In this document: piece after piece, positions 661-29,011 of the stretch
How the letters are laid out: each line of letters starts with the position of its first letter
Numbering within the stretch: the stretch's first letter is position 1
DNA from: an uncultured Candidatus Saccharibacteria bacterium
GTDB lineage: Bacteria > Patescibacteriota > Minisyncoccia > Phycocordibacterales > CSBR16-193
NCBI GenBank assembly: GCA_964559575.1
Contig: CAZLGQ010000001.1
Location: 7,067 to 71,066, forward strand
Length of the DNA: 64,000 nt
Direction of reading: 5' to 3'
Notes under the pieces: model-generated
The model's input: only the letters and a program-made list of their open reading frames with translations
What the model was told of the DNA's origin: nothing
Databases searched by the model: none
Translations under genes and position numbers: made by a program

Positions 661-1701
661 TTATTTTACCACATGATAGTAACCATTTTCATCTCTAACA
701 AAGAAATGATCATTTTGTAAATTAACAAAGACAGTATTTTCTCTTACAAAACGTTCTTTTAAAACATTTTGAACTATTTCATCTGCGGTTAAAGGACCTT
801 TTTCTTCTAAGATCTTTTTAATAACATCTCTTACAACACCCTCAGAATAACCCCATTCCTTGAGAGCATATAACCCTCTACCAACTAAAACAAAACGAGG
901 ATCTTTTATTAGTTCATTGTGTGTGGTTGCAATGTGAGCTTTTTTATTAAAAATTTCTTCTATGGTTTTAGCTACCTCTCTAAAATGTGTAGGCTCTCCT
1001 TTTTTTCTTAATACTAAAAATGCATAGTCACGCATTCCCTTGGTGTATATATTATTTGAAGTAACTCTACCCCACTCTCCTAATGGATTTTTATCTATTT
1101 TTTTGGAAATGGATAACCATCTTCTAGCTATTTCTTCATTTTTATATTCTTCCGAAACATCTTCTAAATAGTTAAGAAACTTTTTTATTATATCAGGTTC
1201 AGATATAAGATCGTCATCTGATAAACTCTGGTAAAGTTTATTTAAAGAATTGTGTATTTTGTTTGATAGTTCCGGATCTATATGCCAACGGTGTTTAAAG
1301 TTTTCGTCTTCTTTTTCTTTATTAAAATAGTCATCTAAATATAAAAGAAAATGATAAAAGTTTTGAGTTGATTTATCTTTTGCAAGAAATTCAAGAAGAT
1401 CTGCTTCAGATACAACTTTTCCCAAGTTTTTTATAATACTATTCAGTTCATCAAATACGTGTGAGTATTTTTTGTATTCTTTAGATGATTTTATTATTGA
1501 AATAGAATTTTTTTCTATCTGACGGACACGTTCTCTAGTTATGCCATATTTTTTACCAATAGCTTCCAAGGTTTTTCTATTGGTGCTTTTTCCAAGACCG
1601 TGTCTTTCTACAATAACGTCCCTCCCCCTTTCTGATAAGGGTTGTAAAAGGTTTTTAACTACCTGTTTGGGTTTAAAAGTTACAGTAGAGATCTTAGGCA
1701 T
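661..1701 (-). CDS. Sigma-70 region 4-like HTH domain protein (N-terminal HTH, long C-terminal domain of unknown function)
   Basis: N-terminal segment HGLGKSTNRKTLEAIGKKYGITRERVRQIEKNSI resembles the sigma-70 region 4 helix-turn-helix. The remaining roughly 280 aa have no recognisable motif. Confidence 0.45.
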   Translation of the reverse strand: MPKISTVTFKPKQVVKNLLQPLSERGRDVIVERHGLGKSTNRKTLEAIGKKYGITRERVRQIEKNSISIIKSSKEYKKYSHVFDELNSIIKNLGKVVSEADLLEFLAKDKSTQNFYHFLLYLDDYFNKEKEDENFKHRWHIDPELSNKIHNSLNKLYQSLSDDDLISEPDIIKKFLNYLEDVSEEYKNEEIARRWLSISKKIDKNPLGEWGRVTSNNIYTKGMRDYAFLVLRKKGEPTHFREVAKTIEEIFNKKAHIATTHNELIKDPRFVLVGRGLYALKEWGYSEGVVRDVIKKILEEKGPLTADEIVQNVLKERFVRENTVFVNLQNDHFFVRDENGYYHVVK

Positions 1702-1820
1702 GTATTTATTATTAAATATTTATTTTAATTAATCAATCGGGATAATTATTTTAGTTAAGTTTTTCTTTTTAAATTTAAAAGAAATTTATACCATATATAA
1801 AAAAATTTTTCAAATTTAGC

Positions 1821-4800
1821 TTATATGATAATATTTATGATCCTGTTGGGAACAAAGAATACTTTTTTTATTTCTTTACCATTACACCATTTTGAAAAGA
1901 CTGGGGTTTTTTTAACCTCATCTAAAACGGTTTTTTCTTTAGAGTCTCTAGGTAGTTCTATACTACCTCTTGTTTTTCCATTTATTTGAAATATTATTTT
2001 TACATTTTCTTTTAATAGTACATCAGGGTTATATTTGGGCCAGTTTTTTTTATGAATTGAAGTTCTATTCCCAAGTGTTTCCCATATTTCTTCGGTTATA
2101 TGTGGAGCAAAAGGTGCTAAAAGAATTAAAAGATTTTCAAGATTTTCTTTTTTGATTTCTTCTTTTTCATCCATTAAATTAACCAAGATCATAAGAGAAG
2201 ATATTGCAGTATTGAAAGAAAAAGATTCAATATCTTCATTTACTTTTTTAATGGTTTTATGTAATGCGGTTTTTGTTTTTGTATCATTATTTTTATTTAA
2301 AGATACCTTTTTAGATAAATTCCAAACTTTTTCCAAAAATCTATGTGCTCCAACCGGACCATTGATATTCCAAGCTACTTCACCTTCAAAGGGTCCCATG
2401 AACATTATATATATTCTAGCCGCATCGGCTCCAAAATTCTTTATAATATCATCCGGACTTACTATATTTCCCCAACGTTTACTCATTTTTCTTCCATCCG
2501 GACCCAGTATAAGACCTTGATTTCTAAGAGCTATAAATGGTTCTTTTGTACTTACTAAATTTTCTTCGTATAAAAATTTATGCCAAAAACGTGAATATAT
2601 TAGATGCCTGGTGGCATGTTCAACACCTCCAACATAAAGATCAACCGGCATCCAGTATTTTTCCTTTTTCTGAGAAACAAATTCTTTATTATTACTAGGA
2701 TCAATAAAACGAAGATAATACCAACAGGATCCCGCCCATTGTGGCATGGTATTGGTTTCTCTTTTAGCTGAAGATCCACAGTTAGGACACTCTGTTTCAA
2801 CCCATGAAGAAATATTGGCTAAAGGGGATTCTCCGGTACCGGTAGGTTCATATGACTTAACTTCCGGAAGCTTAATTGGAAGATCTTTTTCCGGAACCGG
2901 AACTACTCCACATTTCTCACAATGAATTAAAGGTATAGGTTCACCCCAGTAACGTTGTCTGGAAAAGACCCAATCTTTTAATTTGTATGTAATTTTTTTC
3001 TTTCCTTCAACTTTCTTTCTTATCATCTCTTTTGCTTTTTCGCTTTCGATACCGGAGAGGTCTTCCGAGTTGGCTAGAACCCCACTTCCGATATAAGCAA
3101 AATCACCTTCTTTTTTTAACCATTCCATCCAGATGTCTATCTCTGCACAGGTGAGAGATTTAGCGGTCTCTTGGTTAAATTCAAGCCACTCTATATCATG
3201 TTTTTCCATTTCTACCTTTGAAATTTTCTTTCTCCTATTGCTTTTTAATTTGAAATGAACTGCAGTGGTATATGCTTTTCTGTTCTCATTTTTATGAGCT
3301 GCGTGATAATGGGCTTCCACTTGAAAAGGTGTCATCTTTTGAAATTCAAGATCAGTATAACCGGTTTCTTCTTCCACCTCTCTCTTTGCCGCTTTTACTA
3401 TATCCTCTCCTTCTTCCACTCCTCCGACTATAAATGTTCTCCAATTGAACTTTTTCCATTTTAAAAAGAGCATTTTACCGGAATCCGGATCTTCTACTAT
3501 TACATGAACAGTTTTCCTCTCCACCGTCTTTTTACCTTTTATGGGTGGAGTATATTTATCGATCCTTTTTGGATAGATGACATAATTTATTGGTAGGCCT
3601 TTTTTCGAGGCGAAATCAAAATCTCTCTCATCGTGAGCCGGAACCGCCATTATGGCCCCGGTTCCGTGGTTAGAAAGAACATAATCAGCGATCCATATAG
3701 GTATTTTTTTACCATTAACAGGATTTATTGCGTTTATTCCTTTTATTTCCACTCCTGTTTTATTTTTTTCCTCAGAAGTTCTTTGTAATTCTGTTTTTCT
3801 TTTTGTTTTATTTATATAGTTTTTAATTTCTTGTTTATTTTCTACAAAACTCCAAATTTCTTGGATCTTTTGATGCTCCGGAGCCACTACCATATAAGTA
3901 GATCCATAAAGCGTATCCGGTCTGGTAGTAAATACCGGAAGTGAGTCAGTTAAAAGTTTTTTAAGAGCCTTTTTAACCGGTAAAAGATCTTCTATGTCTT
4001 CTTTACTTCCTCCGTCTATATGTTTTCCGGTTTCTTTTGATCTATAAAGTCCTCTTAGGGGAAAATTTGGATTCAATTTTCCTTTTCTTTTAGTTGTCAG
4101 TATGACCTCTCTTTTATTTTTTTTATTTTTTATATCACCATTTGGGGTTGATAAAACCCAAACATCTTGCCAGTAAGCTTCCACTTCTCCTCCGTGTTTT
4201 TTAGCTATATTAGTATAATAACTAACCATCTTTTTACTTATCTGTTCTTTTGATAGTTTATTCTGCTCTTCTTCAGTTAAAACATTTCTTTTTACTTTTA
4301 TAGGATTATTTTTTTCACCCTTTATGTAAAAACCGGTATCTCCTGCCAGGATTGGTAAATTTGTTTTTTCTCTATAAGCCAAAGCTTTCTTTTCAGCATT
4401 TTTTAAAAGAGATACGCCTCCCTCAATAACTTCTATTTCTTTTATTCCTTTTTCCTTGGGAGTAAAAACTTTAATATCTAAACCTTCTGAGTTTAAAAGT
4501 TCCTGAACTCTTTCTTTTTTGCTTGGATTGTTACTTGCCAGAAGTATTTCTTTATATATACATACAGGAAAATCTATTTCCACACCTTGACTTTTCCCTA
4601 TCCAGTTTTTTTGAGAGTCTTTGATTGAATCCGGCCATTTATCTAAGAGATCAAGATCTTTTAAAAGGTCTTCGGCATAATCGGTTATCTTTAAAACCCA
4701 CTGTCTTACTGGCTTCTGTTCTACCTCAGAGTCACATCTCTCACAAAGACCATTTTCCAGATCTTCATTTGCTAGCCCAGTTTTACAAGACGGACACCAA

Positions 4801-5270
4801 TTTATTGGTTCGTTTGATTCAAACGCTAGACCTTTTTTAAACATCTGCAAAAATATCCACTGAGTCCATTTATAGTACTCCGGATCTGTGGTATTTATTT
4901 CACGTTTCCAGTCATAAGAAAGACCGATACTTGATAATTGTTTTTTATATCTTTCAACATTTTTTTTAACAACTTTTTTAGGATGAGTTTTATTTTTTAA
5001 AGCATATCCTTCAGCGGGTAAACCAAAAGCGTCCCATCCCATTGGGTGTAAGACATTAAAACCTTTCATCCTTAAATATCTTGAATAGGTATCTGTTGGA
5101 ACATAATTACGCAAATGACCCGCGTGAATACCTTCTCCTGAAGGATAAGGAAACATATTTAAAATGTATTTTTTTTCTTTTTTATTGCTTTCTTTGGTGT
5201 GATATAGTTTTGCTTTTTCCCACTTTTCCTGCCATTTCTTTTCTATTCTTTTATGATTATATTTCTTCAT
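1821..5270 (-). CDS. leuS: Leucyl-tRNA synthetase with two large inserted domains (ITPase/Ham1-like and Nudix)
   Basis: HIGH-type motif PYPSGEGIHAGHLRNY and KMSKS motif (RKMSKRWGN) are present. The editing-domain hallmark VFTTRPDTLYGSTYMVVAPEH and AVPAHDERDFDFA, and the C-terminal anticodon-binding region, are also present. At 1149 aa it is about 300 aa longer than canonical bacterial LeuRS. Confidence 0.9.
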   Translation of the reverse strand: MKKYNHKRIEKKWQEKWEKAKLYHTKESNKKEKKYILNMFPYPSGEGIHAGHLRNYVPTDTYSRYLRMKGFNVLHPMGWDAFGLPAEGYALKNKTHPKKVVKKNVERYKKQLSSIGLSYDWKREINTTDPEYYKWTQWIFLQMFKKGLAFESNEPINWCPSCKTGLANEDLENGLCERCDSEVEQKPVRQWVLKITDYAEDLLKDLDLLDKWPDSIKDSQKNWIGKSQGVEIDFPVCIYKEILLASNNPSKKERVQELLNSEGLDIKVFTPKEKGIKEIEVIEGGVSLLKNAEKKALAYREKTNLPILAGDTGFYIKGEKNNPIKVKRNVLTEEEQNKLSKEQISKKMVSYYTNIAKKHGGEVEAYWQDVWVLSTPNGDIKNKKNKREVILTTKRKGKLNPNFPLRGLYRSKETGKHIDGGSKEDIEDLLPVKKALKKLLTDSLPVFTTRPDTLYGSTYMVVAPEHQKIQEIWSFVENKQEIKNYINKTKRKTELQRTSEEKNKTGVEIKGINAINPVNGKKIPIWIADYVLSNHGTGAIMAVPAHDERDFDFASKKGLPINYVIYPKRIDKYTPPIKGKKTVERKTVHVIVEDPDSGKMLFLKWKKFNWRTFIVGGVEEGEDIVKAAKREVEEETGYTDLEFQKMTPFQVEAHYHAAHKNENRKAYTTAVHFKLKSNRRKKISKVEMEKHDIEWLEFNQETAKSLTCAEIDIWMEWLKKEGDFAYIGSGVLANSEDLSGIESEKAKEMIRKKVEGKKKITYKLKDWVFSRQRYWGEPIPLIHCEKCGVVPVPEKDLPIKLPEVKSYEPTGTGESPLANISSWVETECPNCGSSAKRETNTMPQWAGSCWYYLRFIDPSNNKEFVSQKKEKYWMPVDLYVGGVEHATRHLIYSRFWHKFLYEENLVSTKEPFIALRNQGLILGPDGRKMSKRWGNIVSPDDIIKNFGADAARIYIMFMGPFEGEVAWNINGPVGAHRFLEKVWNLSKKVSLNKNNDTKTKTALHKTIKKVNEDIESFSFNTAISSLMILVNLMDEKEEIKKENLENLLILLAPFAPHITEEIWETLGNRTSIHKKNWPKYNPDVLLKENVKIIFQINGKTRGSIELPRDSKEKTVLDEVKKTPVFSKWCNGKEIKKVFFVPNRIINIII

Positions 5271-5357
5271 GGATCTTAATTTTCATCAAATATCAATTTT
5301 AATATAATACATTAAAAAAGAGATTGTGACAAATTATTATAGTATTTAATAAAAACA

Positions 5358-5879
5358 TTATATCTCCCTGGAATCATAAGCCCAATGTAAAATAGCTTGA
5401 CGTTGTTTAGGTCTACATGTCAGATCCCCAAAACGACAGTTTTTACTTACTTGGGCAATATGTCTACTGATCTGTTTCCATCTTTTAATCTGTCTTTTAT
5501 CCTCTTCTAAAAGGCGTCTTCCTAAGTAATATCTACAGTACCACTGAAACCAACCTCTGGGATCATGTTTTTCATTTATCCATCCTTTTTTTCTCCAATA
5601 TGACAGAGGTTGGCTTGCATTTATCTTAAAATAATTAAGATCGGGATCATGTCTTTTGGAGCAAAGTTTGGCGTTTTTAAACCAAGATTTTGGAAACTCC
5701 TTTTTACAGTCAGTCATATATTTACCTCCAAACACCCCCATTTCAAGCATTTTTTTAGGAGAAAGATCAGGCGTAAAATCAGGATCAAAATTTTTACCTA
5801 TGGGTTCTGTTAATTTATAGGTATAACCTTTTTGCATCAGATCATTTACTTTTATTATTTTTTCTTTTTTATTGAACAT
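5358..5879 (-). CDS. Hypothetical protein (Trp/Arg-rich, conserved-looking C-terminal half)
   Basis: 173-aa ORF with native AT-rich codon usage. The only motif-like stretch is GWFQWYCRYYLGRR...DKRQIKRW, and no family was recognised. Confidence 0.35.
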   Translation of the reverse strand: MFNKKEKIIKVNDLMQKGYTYKLTEPIGKNFDPDFTPDLSPKKMLEMGVFGGKYMTDCKKEFPKSWFKNAKLCSKRHDPDLNYFKINASQPLSYWRKKGWINEKHDPRGWFQWYCRYYLGRRLLEEDKRQIKRWKQISRHIAQVSKNCRFGDLTCRPKQRQAILHWAYDSREI

Positions 5880-10698: not shown

Positions 10699-11955
10699 AT
10701 GGTTATGTCAAACAAAAATTACGACGTTATTGTGATTGGGGGTGGTCCCTCAGGAATGATGGCCGCAGGTAGAACCGCTGAGAGAGGTTTTAGAGTTTTA
10801 CTTTTAGAAAAAAACAAGAATTTAGGAAAAAAACTTTCATTAACCGGAGGTGGTAGATGTAACATATTAAATGCTGAAGAAAATGAAAAAGAATTAATTG
10901 AAAAATATGGAAAAAGTAAAAAATTTCTTCACTCTACTTTTTCTCAGTTTGGAATGAAAGATACTTGTAATTTTTTTGAAGAAAAAGGACTTCCGCTCGT
11001 AACAGAGGCAAGAAAAAGAGTGTTTCCAAAATCACAAAAATCATTGGATGTTATAAAAACAATGGAAGAATATATGGCCGAAAACGGAGTTGAGGTTAAA
11101 AGAGGACTGAATGTTAAAGGTTTTGAAATTAAAAAATGTCACATTGTTGGAGTTAAAACAGACTTTGGGCTTTATTATGCAAACAAGTTCATACTTTCTA
11201 CAGGTGGACTATCATATCCTAAAACCGGATCAACAGGAGAAGGTTTAAAATGGTTAAGAGATATAGGTCACACAATAAACTCACCGGAACCAAGTTTAGT
11301 ACCATTAACTGTTAAGGAGTCTTGGGTTAAAGAACTTTCCGGAGTTACTCTATCTTTTGCAAAAATAACTTTTGGGATCAATAAAACCAAAAAGGAAGGA
11401 AAGTTTAGTAAAACCGGAAAGATCCTATTCACTCACTTTGGATTATCGGGCCCTTTGATCCTAAATGCTTCAAGAGAAGTTAAAGAACTTTTAAAAAAAG
11501 GACTTGTAAAAACAGAAATAGATATGTATCCGGATACCGACATTAATGAAATCAGAAAAAATCTTCTTAATCTTTTTAACAGAAATAAAAATAAAAGTTT
11601 GAAAAATATTATAAAAGAAGTTACCCCTGAAGGTATGAGTGAAAATGTGGTTAAATTGGTCTCTTCTTCTCTTTTAGAAACCAAAGTTCATAATATAAGT
11701 AAAGAAAAAAGAGAAAACATCGCTGACATAATGAAAAGAATGCCTTTAACAGTTACCGGAACCATGGGGATGGATAGAGCAATAGCTTCTAACGGAGGTC
11801 TTGATCTTTCAGAAGTAGATACAAAAACAATGTCTTCAAAAATATATAAAAATCTTTATATCACAGGAGATATAATTGATATTGAAAGACCAAGTGGCGG
11901 TTTTTCATTACAGTGGTGTTGGACTAGTGGTTGGGTAGCCGGATCTAACACTTAA
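10699..11955 (+). CDS. NAD(P)/FAD-dependent oxidoreductase, HI0933/BaiN-like flavoprotein
   Basis: N-terminal Rossmann motif YDVIVIGGGPSGMMAAGRTAERG and GGGRCN. The 418-aa length is typical of the HI0933 family. Confidence 0.7.
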   Translation: MVMSNKNYDVIVIGGGPSGMMAAGRTAERGFRVLLLEKNKNLGKKLSLTGGGRCNILNAEENEKELIEKYGKSKKFLHSTFSQFGMKDTCNFFEEKGLPLVTEARKRVFPKSQKSLDVIKTMEEYMAENGVEVKRGLNVKGFEIKKCHIVGVKTDFGLYYANKFILSTGGLSYPKTGSTGEGLKWLRDIGHTINSPEPSLVPLTVKESWVKELSGVTLSFAKITFGINKTKKEGKFSKTGKILFTHFGLSGPLILNASREVKELLKKGLVKTEIDMYPDTDINEIRKNLLNLFNRNKNKSLKNIIKEVTPEGMSENVVKLVSSSLLETKVHNISKEKRENIADIMKRMPLTVTGTMGMDRAIASNGGLDLSEVDTKTMSSKIYKNLYITGDIIDIERPSGGFSLQWCWTSGWVAGSNT

Positions 11956-18931: not shown

Positions 18932-19657
18932 TTATGAATGTTTTTTTATAAAAGGTGCAAAATATATAACATGCTCTAAAACTGACTTAACAGAAGCACG
19001 TTGATCGTTATTCATTTTTTTAATTAACGGAAGATAATGTATAAAGTCCTTAACCTTAGGATCACTGGTTATACCTAACCCTTCTTTAGATTTATACTCA
19101 TAAATTTCTTTTTCCAAACTATCTAAAAATATTTGAGATCTTGATCTATCGGATTCTTCTATTATCTCTTTTAACATATTATTTCTATCAGGTATATTTG
19201 AAGATAAAAACTCACTAATAGAAATATCGCAATCCGCATCACTATTTAAAATGGAGATAAAAAATCTGGAGATCAAAGTTGGAAGTAGGATCTTTTGAGA
19301 TGGAATAACTATAATAAAATTAGTGTTTGGAGGATTGTTTTCAAATATTTTAAGTAAAGCATTTTGAGACTCTATGGTTATCATATAAGATTCCAATATA
19401 AAGATCTTTTGATTTTCTTTAACCGAATTAACACTTGCCCAATCTCGTAAAAAAAGAGCATCTTTTATTTCAAAAGAACTTTTGGAATAATGTAGAAAAT
19501 CAGGATTTCCATCAAAAGAAACTTTCCATGTTTTTTTTATAACCTCACGTATAGTCTCTGCTTCTTTTTTGGGGTTCTCAGTTACAAAACAGTAAGCATG
19601 ATGATCTCTGTTATTTAAAACATTTTCAATACTTTCTTTTTTAATTGAAAGACTCAT
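18932..19657 (-). CDS. DNA polymerase III delta'-like clamp-loader subunit (P-loop absent)
   Basis: KIFILESYMITIESQNALLKIFENNPPNTNFIIVIPSQKILLPTLISR aligns with the delta' sensor region (NALLKTLEEPP...TI.SR). No Walker A motif is present. Confidence 0.45.
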   Translation of the reverse strand: MSLSIKKESIENVLNNRDHHAYCFVTENPKKEAETIREVIKKTWKVSFDGNPDFLHYSKSSFEIKDALFLRDWASVNSVKENQKIFILESYMITIESQNALLKIFENNPPNTNFIIVIPSQKILLPTLISRFFISILNSDADCDISISEFLSSNIPDRNNMLKEIIEESDRSRSQIFLDSLEKEIYEYKSKEGLGITSDPKVKDFIHYLPLIKKMNNDQRASVKSVLEHVIYFAPFIKKHS

Positions 19658-19678: not shown

Positions 19679-20704
19679 TTAATTTTTTGATGTAATGCTT
19701 TTTTTATAAACATCAAGATGTTCCAATGCTATACCTGTTCCTCTGGCAACACAGTACATAGGCTCTTTAGCTAAACGAGCCTTTACTCCTGTTCTTCTAT
19801 GAACCAATTCCGTCAAATTTCTTAATTGAGAAGTTCCTCCGGTCATAACTATTCCTTGATCTATAATATCTGAAGAAAGTTCAGGAGGGGTTTCTTGAAG
19901 CACCTCCTTTATAGCACGTATCATTTCATAAAGATCTTTTGTTATAGCATTTAATATTTCACTACTTTCAATTTCAATAGATCTTGGAAGACCTGAAACA
20001 AAATCTCTTCCTTTTATGACCATTTTTAAATCCTCTTCTAATGGAATAGCTGACACAACTTTTATTTTTATGTCCTCTGCGGTTTTATCACCAATACCTA
20101 AATTAAAATTTTTCTTAATATAATCAGTAATAGATTGATCAAGTTTATTACCTCCATATTTTACAGAAGTAGATGAAACAATACCGCCTAAAGAAATAAC
20201 AGCCACATCTGTAGTACCGCCACCAATATCAACTATCATATGTCCGGTTGGTTCATGAATAGGAATGCCGGCTCCAATAGCTGAAAGTATAGGCTCTTTA
20301 ACTACATAAGCGTTTTTAGCCCCCGCTCTAACCGTAGCTTCTATAACAGCTCGTCGTTCGGTTGAAGTTACACCGGCAGGAACTGAAACTAAAACATCCG
20401 GTTTTATAAGATTAAATTTACCTAGAGACTTATCTAAGTAATATCTAAGCATTGCTTCAGTAACACGATAATCTGCAATGACCCCATCTTTCATTGGCCT
20501 GTAAGCTACTATTGCTTCAGGTGTTTTACCAACCATTTTTTTAGCCTCAGCTCCAATAGCAAGTATTTTATTATCACCCTCTGAAACGGCAACAACCGAG
20601 GGTTCATTTAAAATAATACCTTTTTTAGGTACATAAACCAGTATATTGGCTGTTCCCAGATCTATACCTATCTTTTTGGAAAAAATACTCATATTAATTT
20701 TCAA
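19679..20704 (-). CDS. mreB: Rod shape-determining protein MreB
   Basis: IGIDLGTANILVY, EPSVVA and DIGGGTTDVAVIS actin-fold motifs. Confidence 0.85.
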   Translation of the reverse strand: MKINMSIFSKKIGIDLGTANILVYVPKKGIILNEPSVVAVSEGDNKILAIGAEAKKMVGKTPEAIVAYRPMKDGVIADYRVTEAMLRYYLDKSLGKFNLIKPDVLVSVPAGVTSTERRAVIEATVRAGAKNAYVVKEPILSAIGAGIPIHEPTGHMIVDIGGGTTDVAVISLGGIVSSTSVKYGGNKLDQSITDYIKKNFNLGIGDKTAEDIKIKVVSAIPLEEDLKMVIKGRDFVSGLPRSIEIESSEILNAITKDLYEMIRAIKEVLQETPPELSSDIIDQGIVMTGGTSQLRNLTELVHRRTGVKARLAKEPMYCVARGTGIALEHLDVYKKSITSKN

Positions 20705-20801
20705 GAAATTATATTATATATTAAAAACCATAAAAAAACCAAATCCTAAAATAAAAATAATCCACAGTATTATTAAATAATATAGCGTATATGATATAAT
20801 T

Positions 20802-22337
20802 ATGCTTAATATGAATAAAAAAGAAAATAATAATGACCTCAATAAAATAGGTTTAACCATCCAAAAATTCAGAGAAAAAAATAACTTAACTCAAAAGGAT
20901 CTAGCAAATAAACTTGAAACCACTCAAAGTGCAGTTGCTAGAATGGAAAGTGGTGATCAAAACATAAGTGCTTCTACTCTTTCTAAAATAAATCAGGCTT
21001 TAGAAATAAATCTTTTTCATATCAATTCCGAATCTCTTACTGTAAAAATAAAAGGAGGAAAAAAATTAAAAGGATCAATTGAAACAAAAACATCAAAAAA
21101 CGGAGCGGTTGGTTTAATGTGTGCCTCAATTTTAAACAAAGGAAAAACCACACTAAAAAACACTCCACGTATTGAAGAAGTTTTTAGAATAGCTGAAGTT
21201 TTAGAAAGCATTGGTTTTAACATTACTTGGAAAAATTCTGACATGACCATAAGCCCTCCTGAAAAAATAAAAATTGATTCAATAAATAAAGAAGCGGCTC
21301 AAAAAACAAGGAGTATAATAATGTTTTTAGGTCCTTTGATCCATAAACTACCTTCTTTCCAATTACCAACTATAGGAGGTTGTAGACTTGGAAAAAGAAA
21401 TACCAGTCCTCATTTTTTTGCGCTAGAAAGTTTAGGAGTATCTTTTAAAAAAGGAAATTGGCAATATAAACCTTCTTCTTCCTTAAAACCCAAAACAGTT
21501 ATACTTTATGAATCCGGAGACACGGTAACTGAAAACGCTATTATGGCCGCCGCAGGCATTCCTACAACTACCACTATAAAATTTGCCTCAGCAAATTACC
21601 AAGTACAGGAAATGTGCTTTTTCTTAAAAAAATTAGGAGTAAAAATAGAAGGAATAGGTACTACTACATTAAAAGTAACAGGCTTAAGTGAAATAAATAA
21701 AAATATTTCATATAATTTAAGTGAGGATCCAATAGAATCAATGTTCTTTTTAGCTACTGCAATAGTAACTAATTCATCAATAACAATAAAACGTTGCCCA
21801 ATAGATTTTTTAGAACTTGAACTTCTCAAATTAAAAAAAATGGGCTTTAAATACAAAAAAAGTGATGTTTATTTTTCAGAAAATCAAGAAACAAAATTAG
21901 TTGATATAACAACCTATCAATCTAAAATGAAAGCCGGAAGAGATACAAAAATAGAACCAAGACCTTATCCCGGTTTAAATATTGATAACCTGCCTTTTTT
22001 TGCAATTATCGCAACTCAAACAGAAGGACAGATCTTAATACACGACTGGGTTTATGAAGAAAGAGCAATATATTATAAAGAACTGGATAAACTTGGAGCT
22101 AAAACTATATTAGCAGATCCTCATCGTATATATATTTCAGGTAAAACTCCTCTTATAGCAAATGAAGTTATCTGCCCTCCGGCACTTAGACCGGCTGCCA
22201 TAATACTAATTGGAATGTTAGCGGCAGATGGTGTATCTGTTTTAAGAAATATATACAGTATAAACAGAGGATATGAAAGTATAATAGAAAGATTAAATGA
22301 TCTAGGGGCTTCTATTGAATTTGAATCAAATATTTAA
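20802..22337 (+). CDS. murA: UDP-N-acetylglucosamine 1-carboxyvinyltransferase with an N-terminal XRE-type HTH domain (fusion)
   Basis: Residues about 15-70 (LTQKDLANKLETTQSAVARMESGDQNISASTLSKINQAL) form an XRE/Cro-type HTH. The remainder aligns end-to-end with MurA (IKGGKKLKGSIETKTSKNGAVGLMCASIL, active-site loop GGCRLGKRNTSPH, C-terminal INRGYESIIERLNDLGASIE). Confidence 0.75.
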   Translation: MLNMNKKENNNDLNKIGLTIQKFREKNNLTQKDLANKLETTQSAVARMESGDQNISASTLSKINQALEINLFHINSESLTVKIKGGKKLKGSIETKTSKNGAVGLMCASILNKGKTTLKNTPRIEEVFRIAEVLESIGFNITWKNSDMTISPPEKIKIDSINKEAAQKTRSIIMFLGPLIHKLPSFQLPTIGGCRLGKRNTSPHFFALESLGVSFKKGNWQYKPSSSLKPKTVILYESGDTVTENAIMAAAGIPTTTTIKFASANYQVQEMCFFLKKLGVKIEGIGTTTLKVTGLSEINKNISYNLSEDPIESMFFLATAIVTNSSITIKRCPIDFLELELLKLKKMGFKYKKSDVYFSENQETKLVDITTYQSKMKAGRDTKIEPRPYPGLNIDNLPFFAIIATQTEGQILIHDWVYEERAIYYKELDKLGAKTILADPHRIYISGKTPLIANEVICPPALRPAAIILIGMLAADGVSVLRNIYSINRGYESIIERLNDLGASIEFESNI

Positions 22338-28080: not shown

Positions 28081-28120
28081 AACCCTTATCATATGTGATA
28101 TTATGTATTAAATTCATATT

Positions 28121-29011
28121 TTGATTAAAAATAAAAAAGCTATGAAAGTATTAATATCTAATACTAAAAAAGTTGAAGAGATCAAAAAGGAAATGCAAAG
28201 ATCTGGACCGGATAAGATCCACGTTCTTTCCGATTTTGATAGAACCCTAACCTACGGAACGACCAACGGAATAAAAACCCCCTCTATTATTTCCATGCTC
28301 AGGGATGGAAAACACTTAACAGATGATTATGCGGACAAAGCTCATTCTTTATTTAATAAATATCATCCACTTGAATCTGATTTGAACATTCCTTTAAGAG
28401 AAAGAAAAGAATTAATGCAAGAATGGTGGAAAAACCATCATGATCTATTGATTAAATCGGGTCTTAGCAAAAACGATCTTGAAGATACTGTTAAAAATGG
28501 ACATGTTAAATTCAGAGAAGGCGTTCCCGAATTTGTTGATCTTTTATATAACAAAAAGATCCCTTTGGTTATTATGTCAGCATGCGGTTGTGGAGAAGCA
28601 GTAAAAATGTTTTTTCAAAAGATCAAAAAAGATCATTCAAATATATTTTATATTATCAATAAATATCATTGGGATAAAAACGGAAAAGCTCTTTCTGCGA
28701 AAGAACCGATAATTCATGCTTTAAATAAAGATGAGACGGTGTTGGAGAATTTCCCGAATGTATATAAACATATAAAAGAAAGAAAAAAAGTTATTCTACT
28801 GGGAGATAGTATTGGAGATATTGATATGATCAAAGGATTTCGTTACGAGAAACTTTTAAAGATCGGGTTTTTAAACAGTGGTTATGAAAGATTAAGAGAA
28901 AAATATTTAGACAGTTTTGATATAGTTTTAGAGGGAGACAAGGATTTTTATTTCATAAATAAGCTCTTTAAAGAAATAATTTTAAAAAAAAATTTTAAAA
29001 TCTATAAATAA
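28121..29011 (+). CDS. HAD-superfamily pyrimidine 5'-nucleotidase (UMPH-1/NT5C3-like)
   Basis: HVLSDFDRTLT (HAD motif I, D-x-D-x-T) in the characteristic NT5C3 context, GDSIGDIDM (motif IV-like), and about 296 aa. Confidence 0.5.
   Translation: MIKNKKAMKVLISNTKKVEEIKKEMQRSGPDKIHVLSDFDRTLTYGTTNGIKTPSIISMLRDGKHLTDDYADKAHSLFNKYHPLESDLNIPLRERKELMQEWWKNHHDLLIKSGLSKNDLEDTVKNGHVKFREGVPEFVDLLYNKKIPLVIMSACGCGEAVKMFFQKIKKDHSNIFYIINKYHWDKNGKALSAKEPIIHALNKDETVLENFPNVYKHIKERKKVILLGDSIGDIDMIKGFRYEKLLKIGFLNSGYERLREKYLDSFDIVLEGDKDFYFINKLFKEIILKKNFKIYK

Follow-up and report, generated by a model that had tools for sequence, protein, structure and literature searches.

The stretch analysed here, hereafter the window, comprises 64,000 nucleotides of contig CAZLGQ010000001.1 from an uncultured Candidatus Saccharibacteria bacterium. 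It carries a gene in which a helix-turn-helix (HTH) DNA-binding domain of the Cro/C1 type is fused to the N-terminus of MurA, the UDP-N-acetylglucosamine (UDP-GlcNAc) enolpyruvyl transferase. The gene is transcribed away from mreB and a holB-like gene, and both these neighbours and the shared intergenic region (20705..20801) are as the first-pass annotation of this DNA described them. Directly before the fusion gene, overlapping its predicted −10 element, lies a near-palindromic sequence that recurs at the same place in relatives from several lineages. The coordinates of all these features are collected in Table 1. Taken together, they point to an enzyme that probably also acts as the repressor of its own gene.

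Both domain calls of the first-pass annotation, an XRE-family HTH on the N-terminus of a MurA, proved correct by Pfam and NCBIfam, and the peptides it quoted are present at residues 29–67 (LTQKDLANKLETTQSAVARMESGDQNISASTLSKINQAL) and 192–204 (GGCRLGKRNTSPH) of the window protein. The Pfam search that it proposed for the HTH returned HTH_3 at residues 20–71, with 51.4 bits against a cutoff of 23 (E=1.1e-13), and HTH_31 and HTH_26 likewise score over their cutoffs when the HTH is searched as an isolated domain. The AlphaFold model of the protein (predicted local distance difference test, pLDDT, 86.5; predicted template modelling score, pTM, 0.81) consists of two confident domains with a low-confidence linker between them, and the helices of the HTH span residues 2–26, 31–38, 42–49 and 57–67. 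The closest solved relatives of this domain are the controller proteins C.BclI, C.Esp1396I and C.AhdI, together with HipB and the 434 repressor (E=6e-5 to 1e-3); MBF1 is also among them. The helix motif TTQSAVARMESG closely resembles TTQQSIEQLENG, which we take to be the corresponding sequence of the 434 repressor. The recognition helix and the turn that follows it, [TS][TS]QSA[VI]AR[IM]E.G.QN, are almost invariant in the family, and residues T40, Q42, S43, A46, R47, E49, G51 and N54 do not vary among 60 homologs. With a mean pairwise identity of 64% for the HTH versus 74% for MurA, the DNA-binding domain is nearly as constrained as the enzyme.

The MurA domain begins about 7 residues after the HTH and reaches the C-terminus (Pfam, AlphaFold), and the protein has no membrane segment. 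Pfam EPSP_synthase covers residues 84–498 (E=8e-37) and NCBIfam PRK09369 (MurA) residues 81–507 (308.4 bits versus a cutoff of 297), whereas the score for the strict murA equivalog TIGR01072 is 303.3 bits, under its cutoff of 392.7. Among solved structures, the best sequence matches are MurA without exception (5ujs, E=2e-47), and a Foldseek search with the AlphaFold model matches MurA structures with E=4e-38 and a target-normalised template modelling (TM) score of 0.84–0.93, ahead of NikO and AroA; the two-domain enolpyruvyl-transferase fold is thus seen in the model and in the structural search. The window protein and every enzyme-type fusion retain the equivalents of K22, N23, R91, C115, R120, D305, R331, R371 and R397 of E. 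coli MurA, and these catalytic and substrate-binding positions are invariant across the 60 homologs. The equivalent of D369 is not conserved (P or A), with an uncertain alignment at that position. The Cys loop aligns with the E. coli loop PGGCTIGARPVDLH that holds C115 and R120, and its residues 193–197 form the only internal segment of low pLDDT besides the linker, as expected for a mobile loop. The E. coli MurA reference sequence used in this comparison has the expected length (419 residues) and key positions. Because the catalytic residues are intact, the MurA domain of the fusion is probably active as an enzyme.

The comparisons described below rest on 80 retained loci (81 upstream regions in some counts) from at least 575 matching genomes. 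In 80 of 80 loci a single tblastn alignment runs in one frame from the HTH into MurA, as far as the MurA C-terminus or to the contig end where the gene is truncated, which excludes a frameshift or a chimera. The frameshift or pair of separate genes against which the first-pass annotation had cautioned was therefore not seen in any of these independent loci. That an XRE regulator and a murA gene were joined by a sequencing or assembly error draws only on the prior that fusions in metagenome-assembled genomes can be artefacts, and is exceedingly improbable: the frame is the same in all 80 assemblies, on contigs of up to about 1 Mb, no alternative start codon is present near the MurA N-terminus in the window open reading frame (ORF), and Streptomyces, Nonomuraea and Janibacter isolates have the fusion in their genomes. 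The two-gene artefact was rejected on the in-frame loci and the isolate genomes.

A scan of one genome per species in GTDB found an HTH joined to the MurA N-terminus in at least 575 species genomes, so that the survey of MurA orthologs in the Candidate Phyla Radiation (CPR) suggested in the first-pass annotation turned up the same fusion many times over. The lineages are Nomura-, Kaiser-, Zambryski-, Taylor-, Lipton- and Uhrbacteria and the Saccharimonadia, including Nanogingivalaceae; one record labelled Peribacteria and two Janibacter records also match. Among the matches listed in the homology search, 120 homologs are all about 500 residues long and contain both HTH and EPSP_synthase, at identities from 84% down to 62%. 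Some of these lie on near-complete contigs of up to about 1 Mb, and the source names point to Patescibacteria or Parcubacteria. In an exhaustive search of 50%-identity representatives, members of fusion length reach down to about 30% identity. Cultured Actinobacteria have the fusion in abundance: a 509-residue form occurs in Streptomyces, Nonomuraea, Streptacidiphilus, Actinacidiphila, Marinactinospora and others, 86–96% identical to the actinobacterial representative, under the RefSeq names "helix-turn-helix domain-containing protein" or MurA. The actinobacterial fusions (loci L064, L039 and L084–L088) are about 49–53% identical to the CPR protein. Since the two Janibacter loci (L064 from J. 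hoylei PVAS-1, 3989–5539, and L039) have a GC content of 66–69%, and the J. hoylei fusion is flanked by uvrA-like and dxs genes, they belong to a true actinobacterial chromosome. The fusion is real and ancient. The first-pass annotation had called it unusual; this holds in comparison with model organisms but not for Patescibacteria, across which it is the common form of MurA, nor for Actinobacteria, where it is a widespread paralog.

Two observations on the homologs and loci may be added. Long MurA-like proteins also exist, with the MurA-like domain at the C-terminus in one (P0256, 1204 residues, domain at 755–1197) and at the N-terminus in another (P0269, 1155 residues, domain at 9–427). Many loci are labelled 'uncultured Candidatus Saccharibacteria bacterium' (third-party annotation, TPA, co-assembly bins) and show the mreB-holB-priA-def synteny of Paceibacteria-type loci; these labels may be generic and unsuited to taxonomy.

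A closer comparison of the upstream regions revealed the palindrome. The word CATATATG occurs in 46 of the 80 regions, against a shuffled expectation of 0.6, and alignment by eye gave an 18-bp palindrome. Two clades have perfect versions of it, TATAGCATATATGCTATA and TATATCATATATGATATA respectively, and the Janibacter loci have CTATCTCATATATGGGTTA. Of 81 loci, 77 have a site homologous to that of the window before the fusion gene, a strongly positive outcome for the conserved palindromic operator that the first-pass annotation had proposed to look for in 20705..20801 across related genomes. Within 220 bp upstream, the family consensus TATAKCATATATGMTATA is matched without mismatch in 25 loci, with one mismatch in 27 and with two in 10, hence with at most two in 62 of 81; for 220-bp windows drawn at random from these loci, the figure is only 0.2%. 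The information content is mirrored between the two halves at each position, and C6/G13 are conserved to 97–98%. Scored with a position weight matrix (PWM), the window site is the sole match of at least 15 bits in the 64 kb, the next-best matches reaching 11.7 and 10.9 bits and the maximum of 100 Markov-simulated windows being 17.8 bits. The site surfaced only through the comparison of the 80 loci: a single-sequence repeat search of 20690–20830 returned a trivial AT palindrome at 20709–20726 and missed it. At a threshold of 10 bits the window holds three PWM matches versus 0.38 expected by chance, a marginal excess from which no wider regulon is claimed. One weak match, at 11857, is inside a coding region. 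Another weak operator-like site (CTTATCATATGTGATATT, 28085–28102, 10.9 bits) is placed 19 nt upstream of the ORF at 28121–29011, a pyrimidine 5'-nucleotidase (UMPH-1; Pfam, E=6e-64), and is only a marginal candidate for a second target because the outer TATA, otherwise about 98% conserved, is missing.

The presence of the site follows that of the HTH. In the Streptomyces, Nonomuraea and Marinactinospora loci (L084–L088) it is found in 5 of 5; in these sequences of 69–72% GC the AT-rich palindrome is the sole PWM match in 9.5 kb. The actinobacterial palindromes AATCTCATATTTGAGATA, CATCTCATATGTGAGATA and TATCTCATATTTGAGATA score 26–30 bits and end 11–12 nt before the fusion ATG. In the close MurA relatives P0123, P0131 and P0135, which have no HTH, the site is found in 0 of 3, with negative best upstream scores, and no hidden in-frame HTH lies upstream of them. 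At L089 (about 2925–3010) a tRNA-like sequence is directly upstream of, and seemingly overlaps, the called start of P0123, whose annotated start is probably too far upstream. Deep-branching relatives of the fusion (P0130, P0132, P0140, P0141, P0144, P0199 and P0245) have lost C115, R120, R91 and often K22 and kept the HTH motif, and the operator is kept in 3 of 3 loci of such catalytically degenerate relatives examined. The recognition helix also appears to covary with the site: a helix of the form xT-Q is accompanied by operator G5 in 27 of 29 cases and one of the form xS-Q in 0 of 46, which is supportive but not decisive. The comparison of loci establishes a predicted operator that is symmetric, specific to this promoter and co-occurring with the HTH.

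At the promoter, the T at motif position 20 is 72% conserved and completes TATAnT on the murA strand. A simple sigma-70 promoter scan returned nothing useful and did not call the −10 hexamer at 20795–20800, which it overlooked for want of a matching −35 hexamer. In 45 of 78 loci, 8–12 nt separate the palindrome from the next in-frame ATG. The window has two candidate start codons: ATG 20802, a mere 1 nt after TATAAT, and the in-frame ATG 20811, 12 nt past the palindrome; since the latter fits the family geometry, it is probably the true start, giving a protein of 508 residues. With a spacing of 8–12 nt the start of transcription is expected at or beside the start codon, and the geometry predicts a leaderless or near-leaderless mRNA for the fusion. 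Of the 21 loci with murB as the divergent gene (examples are L030, L073 and L079), 16 have a TATAnT hexamer on the opposite strand that comes from the palindrome's left end. In L030, which was inspected closely, the palindrome is extended to about 22 bp (ATTATATCATATATGATATAAT) and places a TATAAT box on each strand, back to back, so that one bound dimer could control both divergent promoters. A rigid test for TATAnT on the plus strand at motif positions 15–20 fails in this murB-divergent clade, for which the single example of L030 suggests a hexamer shifted by 2 nt and an mRNA with a leader.

As the site contains the −10 hexamer, the palindrome might be the promoter core, or the site of another regulator, with a different role for the fused HTH. 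In Streptomyces, murA2 is known to be under the control of other factors, namely BldM-WhiI (PMC4125116) and SigB (PMC8346170), and has a predicted DmdR1 site (PMC12161575). However, the symmetric profile and the C6/G13 pair, which falls outside the −10 consensus, point to a dimeric binder, and the site is present with the HTH (77/81 loci, 3/3 degenerate relatives, 5/5 actinobacterial loci) and not without it (0/3). It moreover covaries with the recognition helix and has been retained in phyla with few other regulators in common. A promoter core alone, or a binder other than the fused HTH, is thus an unlikely explanation.

Table 1. Features of the HTH-MurA locus in the window (positions in the 64,000-nt window; residues counted from ATG 20802).
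Feature	Position	Strand	Details
HTH-MurA fusion ORF	20802..22337	+	511 aa from ATG 20802, uninterrupted, no internal stop
Cro/C1 (XRE, HTH_3) DNA-binding domain	20844..21017	+	aa 15-72; Pfam HTH_3, AlphaFold helices
Recognition helix TTQSAVARME	20919..20948	+	aa 40-49
Short flexible linker	21018..21035	+	aa 73-78; pLDDT <50 at residues 73-76
MurA (UDP-GlcNAc enolpyruvyl transferase) domain	21036..22322	+	aa 79-507; PRK09369, Foldseek, conserved residues
Catalytic Cys loop GGCRLGKRNTSPH	21375..21413	+	aa 192-204; Cys194 = 21381-21383
18-bp near-palindromic predicted operator TATAGCGTATATGATATA	20781..20798	.	PWM 24.4 bits; family consensus TATAKCATATATGMTATA
Predicted extended -10 element TGaTATAAT	20792..20800	+	TATAAT 20795-20800; formed by operator 3' half
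mreB, divergent, candidate co-regulated gene	19679..20704	-	Pfam MreB_Mbl, E=8e-133
DNA polymerase III delta'-like gene	18932..19657	-	neighbour of mreB

The genes around the fusion differ between lineages. Of the 80 loci, about 29 have mreB as the divergent neighbour and about 21 have murB, the rest having neither, and mreB is absent from the 8–9.5 kb actinobacterial loci examined. In two loci a second strong copy of the operator is found directly upstream of murC (L046, 1899–1916; L060, 2084–2101). There murC scores 410 and 386 bits with TIGR01082, and murB, which is divergent from HTH-murA, scores 330 and 341 bits with PRK00046. In L046 a weak homolog of VanX-like D-Ala-D-Ala dipeptidases is encoded between them. 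Operators at promoters of the own pathway, as looked for in a trigger enzyme, are thus found at the promoter of the fusion itself (77/81), in the intergenic regions shared with mreB or murB, and at murC.

This arrangement can also be read in another way, with the HTH binding the operator mainly as an activator or dual regulator of mreB or of murB and murC, and not as an autorepressor. The site is always in the divergent region beside mreB or murB when one of them is adjacent, the palindrome provides the TATAnT of the murB strand in 16 of the 21 murB-divergent loci, and the extra copies precede murC. On the other hand, the overlap of the site with the −10 element and the start region is the classic geometry of repression, and many loci, including those of Actinobacteria, lack a divergent cell-wall gene while the site keeps the same distance to the ATG. 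We regard activation of the neighbours as the main role as rather unlikely.

The proximity of mreB brings to mind RodZ, whose XRE-like HTH is a protein-binding module, and the first-pass annotation had proposed that the HTH might tether the enzyme near the mreB operon. The HTH would then bind MreB instead of DNA and recruit MurA to the MreB cytoskeleton, in keeping with the divergent mreB of the window and of about 29 of the 80 loci. This proposal does not stand up well to the comparison. The RodZ-type HTH_25 profile scores 13.7 bits, under its cutoff of 24.6, versus 51.4 bits for HTH_3, and RodZ is missing from the 55 PDB chains matched at E<=1. In addition, mreB is not nearby in about 50 of the 80 loci, nor in the actinobacterial ones, and a tether would leave unexplained both the co-occurrence of palindrome and HTH and the retention of HTH and site in catalytically dead relatives. 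We consider it highly unlikely.

The dead relatives themselves deserve a more detailed description. L083 (2714–8001) encodes murB and a canonical stand-alone murA (PGGCVLGARSISAH) divergently from the degenerate HTH gene P0140, followed by a Mur ligase; the operator is in the 84-bp gap, and operator and a TATACT hexamer are placed 7 nt before the P0140 ATG. This locus looks like a case of subfunctionalisation, with the enzyme and a regulator derived from MurA now encoded apart. In L081 (4685–7554), two operator copies (21.1 and 13.8 bits) precede an apparent operon of NUDIX and NTP_transferase genes that ends in the degenerate P0144, and nucleotide-sugar metabolism may accordingly fall within the regulon there.

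Such loci raise the question of whether the window protein, too, might be purely a regulator, its MurA-like domain serving as a ligand sensor while another gene supplies MurA. The loss of the catalytic loop in the deep-branching relatives, the canonical murA next door in L083 and the score of the window protein under the strict murA equivalog cutoff would all agree with this. They are outweighed by the nine catalytic equivalents that are kept in the window protein and invariant in 60 close homologs, by the MurA part being more conserved than the HTH, and by the search of the 64-kb window, in which no second murA, and neither murB nor murC, was found. A purely regulatory function of the window protein is therefore very unlikely.

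The reading that we favour, and consider probable from the comparative evidence, is that of a bifunctional trigger enzyme, an enzyme and repressor in one, which autoregulates murA and probably also the divergent mreB or murB. A catalytically competent-looking enzyme and a DNA-binding domain share one polypeptide, in the same frame in 80 of 80 loci, and autoregulation of murA, first put forward in the first-pass annotation, gains support from the conserved operator on the gene's own promoter. The HTH, tethered by the linker, would bind the 18-bp palindrome at 20781–20798, presumably as a dimer. The palindrome is part of the −10 region of the fusion gene, so that the bound protein would cover the −10 element and the transcription start and is expected to block RNA polymerase. 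The level of MurA protein would thereby feed back negatively on the transcription of murA. Since the site is located in a divergent intergenic region, the neighbouring cell-wall gene should be affected as well, so that co-regulation would probably extend to mreB in the window, to murB in those lineages that have it as the neighbour, and to murC in loci with a second site. In this scenario the HTH would be the binder of the palindrome, the protein would dimerise and the effect would be repression.

Several points weigh against this interpretation. The support is comparative throughout, and it is from comparison that we infer the direction of regulation. The window's own site is imperfect, with half-sites TATAGCGTA and TATATCATA. 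A palindrome implies a dimer, and MurA enzymes are usually described as monomers. Promoter function might account for some of the palindrome's conservation, since the −10 hexamer lies within it. The covariation between helix and operator amounts to only about 4–5 changes by parsimony on a tree of the MurA domain alone, including a nested co-reversal in L009 and L044. Finally, we infer the substrate of the MurA domain, as its score is under the TIGR01072 cutoff.

The most speculative element is a modulation of DNA binding by ligands, which is pure hypothesis. MurA undergoes a large change from an open to a closed state and forms tight complexes with UDP-N-acetylmuramic acid (UDP-MurNAc) and the phosphoenolpyruvate (PEP) adduct. 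It is conceivable, though we lean somewhat against it, that the ligand state of MurA (UDP-GlcNAc, PEP adduct, UDP-MurNAc) sets the spacing or dimerisation of the HTH domains and hence the occupancy at murA, murB, mreB and murC. The Foldseek list includes 3swd, 3su9 and 8d84, which we take to be MurA with UDP-MurNAc and the PEP adduct, and the existence of solved structures of this kind makes a feedback ligand plausible. If this were true, the protein would be a one-protein homeostat for the first cell-wall steps in the minimal-genome Patescibacteria and, via MurA2, in sporulating Actinobacteria. In some lineages catalysis would then have been lost, with the protein persisting as a MurA-derived transcription factor beside a canonical murA.

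The proposed organisation has parallels among known systems. BirA of E. coli combines an N-terminal HTH-type domain with an enzyme and acts at a palindromic operator in a divergent promoter region of its own pathway, with dimerisation and DNA binding controlled by biotinyl-AMP. HTH-MurA resembles it in joining an N-terminal DNA-binding domain to an enzyme and in having a palindromic operator in a divergent region of its own pathway. The two differ in that BirA has a winged helix where the fusion has a Cro/C1 domain, in enzyme fold and in pathway; BirA does not sit on its own promoter, and its control by a ligand is demonstrated whereas that of HTH-MurA is only hypothesised. PutA, which autoregulates from the divergent put intergenic region, and NadR are likewise metabolic enzymes fused to a DNA-binding domain that regulate genes of their own pathway. 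PutA, however, has a ribbon-helix-helix domain and a membrane switch, NadR has three domains, and neither belongs to the cell wall. Small XRE autoregulators (C proteins, HipB, the 434 repressor) bind as dimers to palindromes that overlap promoters and so autoregulate; they are about 70–100 residues long and stand alone or are paired with a toxin, whereas the partner in HTH-MurA is an enzyme of about 430 residues. RodZ shares with the fusion an XRE-like HTH, a place in cell-wall morphogenesis and a nearby mreB, but the HTH of RodZ has MreB as its partner and precedes a transmembrane segment.

Canonical MurA (E. coli, E. cloacae, B. subtilis MurAA) has the same fold and catalytic residues at about 25–33% identity. 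It is without a DNA-binding domain, unlike the fused clade, which forms a distinct branch under the TIGR01072 cutoff. Regulation of canonical MurA is post-translational, by UDP-MurNAc feedback, by ClpCP- and ReoM-dependent proteolysis in Firmicutes and by partner proteins. Transcription factors derived from enzymes (the Nudix-related NrtR, ROK repressors, B. subtilis PurR) represent an end-point that the degenerate HTH-MurA-like relatives resemble, with a different fold: once the catalytic residues are gone, the fold of the enzyme persists as a sensor domain.

In Streptomyces, SCO5998 (MurA2; vnz_28735) adjoins the aconitase SCO5999 (PMC12161575), and in L084, a Streptomyces locus, the fusion gene is about 3.7 kb from an aconitase gene. 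The Streptomyces fusion is thus probably MurA2 (SCO5998/vnz_28735), a candidate ortholog by its aconitase neighbourhood. In L084–L086, all from one Streptomyces species, a gas-vesicle (gvp) cluster is located between the aconitase and the HTH-MurA gene (799–3739). Streptomyces murA2 has been treated as a second MurA and as a target of BldM-WhiI (PMC4125116, PMC11005364), SigB (PMC8346170) and, by prediction, DmdR1 (PMC12161575), and these papers make no mention of the HTH or of self-regulation. Full-text literature searches returned no description of the function or operator of an HTH-MurA fusion, and no MurA-derived regulator family. The fusion itself can be seen in public annotation and so is not new; what appears to be undescribed in the literature searched is its operator, the proposed autoregulatory circuit and the catalytically degenerate offshoots that look like regulators.

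MurA is the first enzyme of bacterial cell-wall synthesis, and in this family it seems to come with a repressor domain and an operator of its own, a circuit that would probably surprise a cell-wall specialist. It would represent a concrete regulatory circuit for the Patescibacteria/CPR, a lineage with few characterised ones, and because the same architecture and operator are present in the genetically tractable Streptomyces, probably in MurA2, a paralog under sporulation control, autoregulation is directly testable. As MurA is the target of fosfomycin, the autoregulatory loop could bear on the response to this drug. The distribution over CPR and Actinobacteria prompts one to ask whether the gene has passed between epibionts of the Saccharibacteria type and the Actinobacteria that host them. 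Finally, several stages coexist in the family: MurA as an enzyme on its own, the probable fusion of enzyme and repressor, and a catalytically dead regulator encoded beside a separate enzyme. Leaving aside the order of events, they are consistent with a path from metabolic enzyme to transcription factor.

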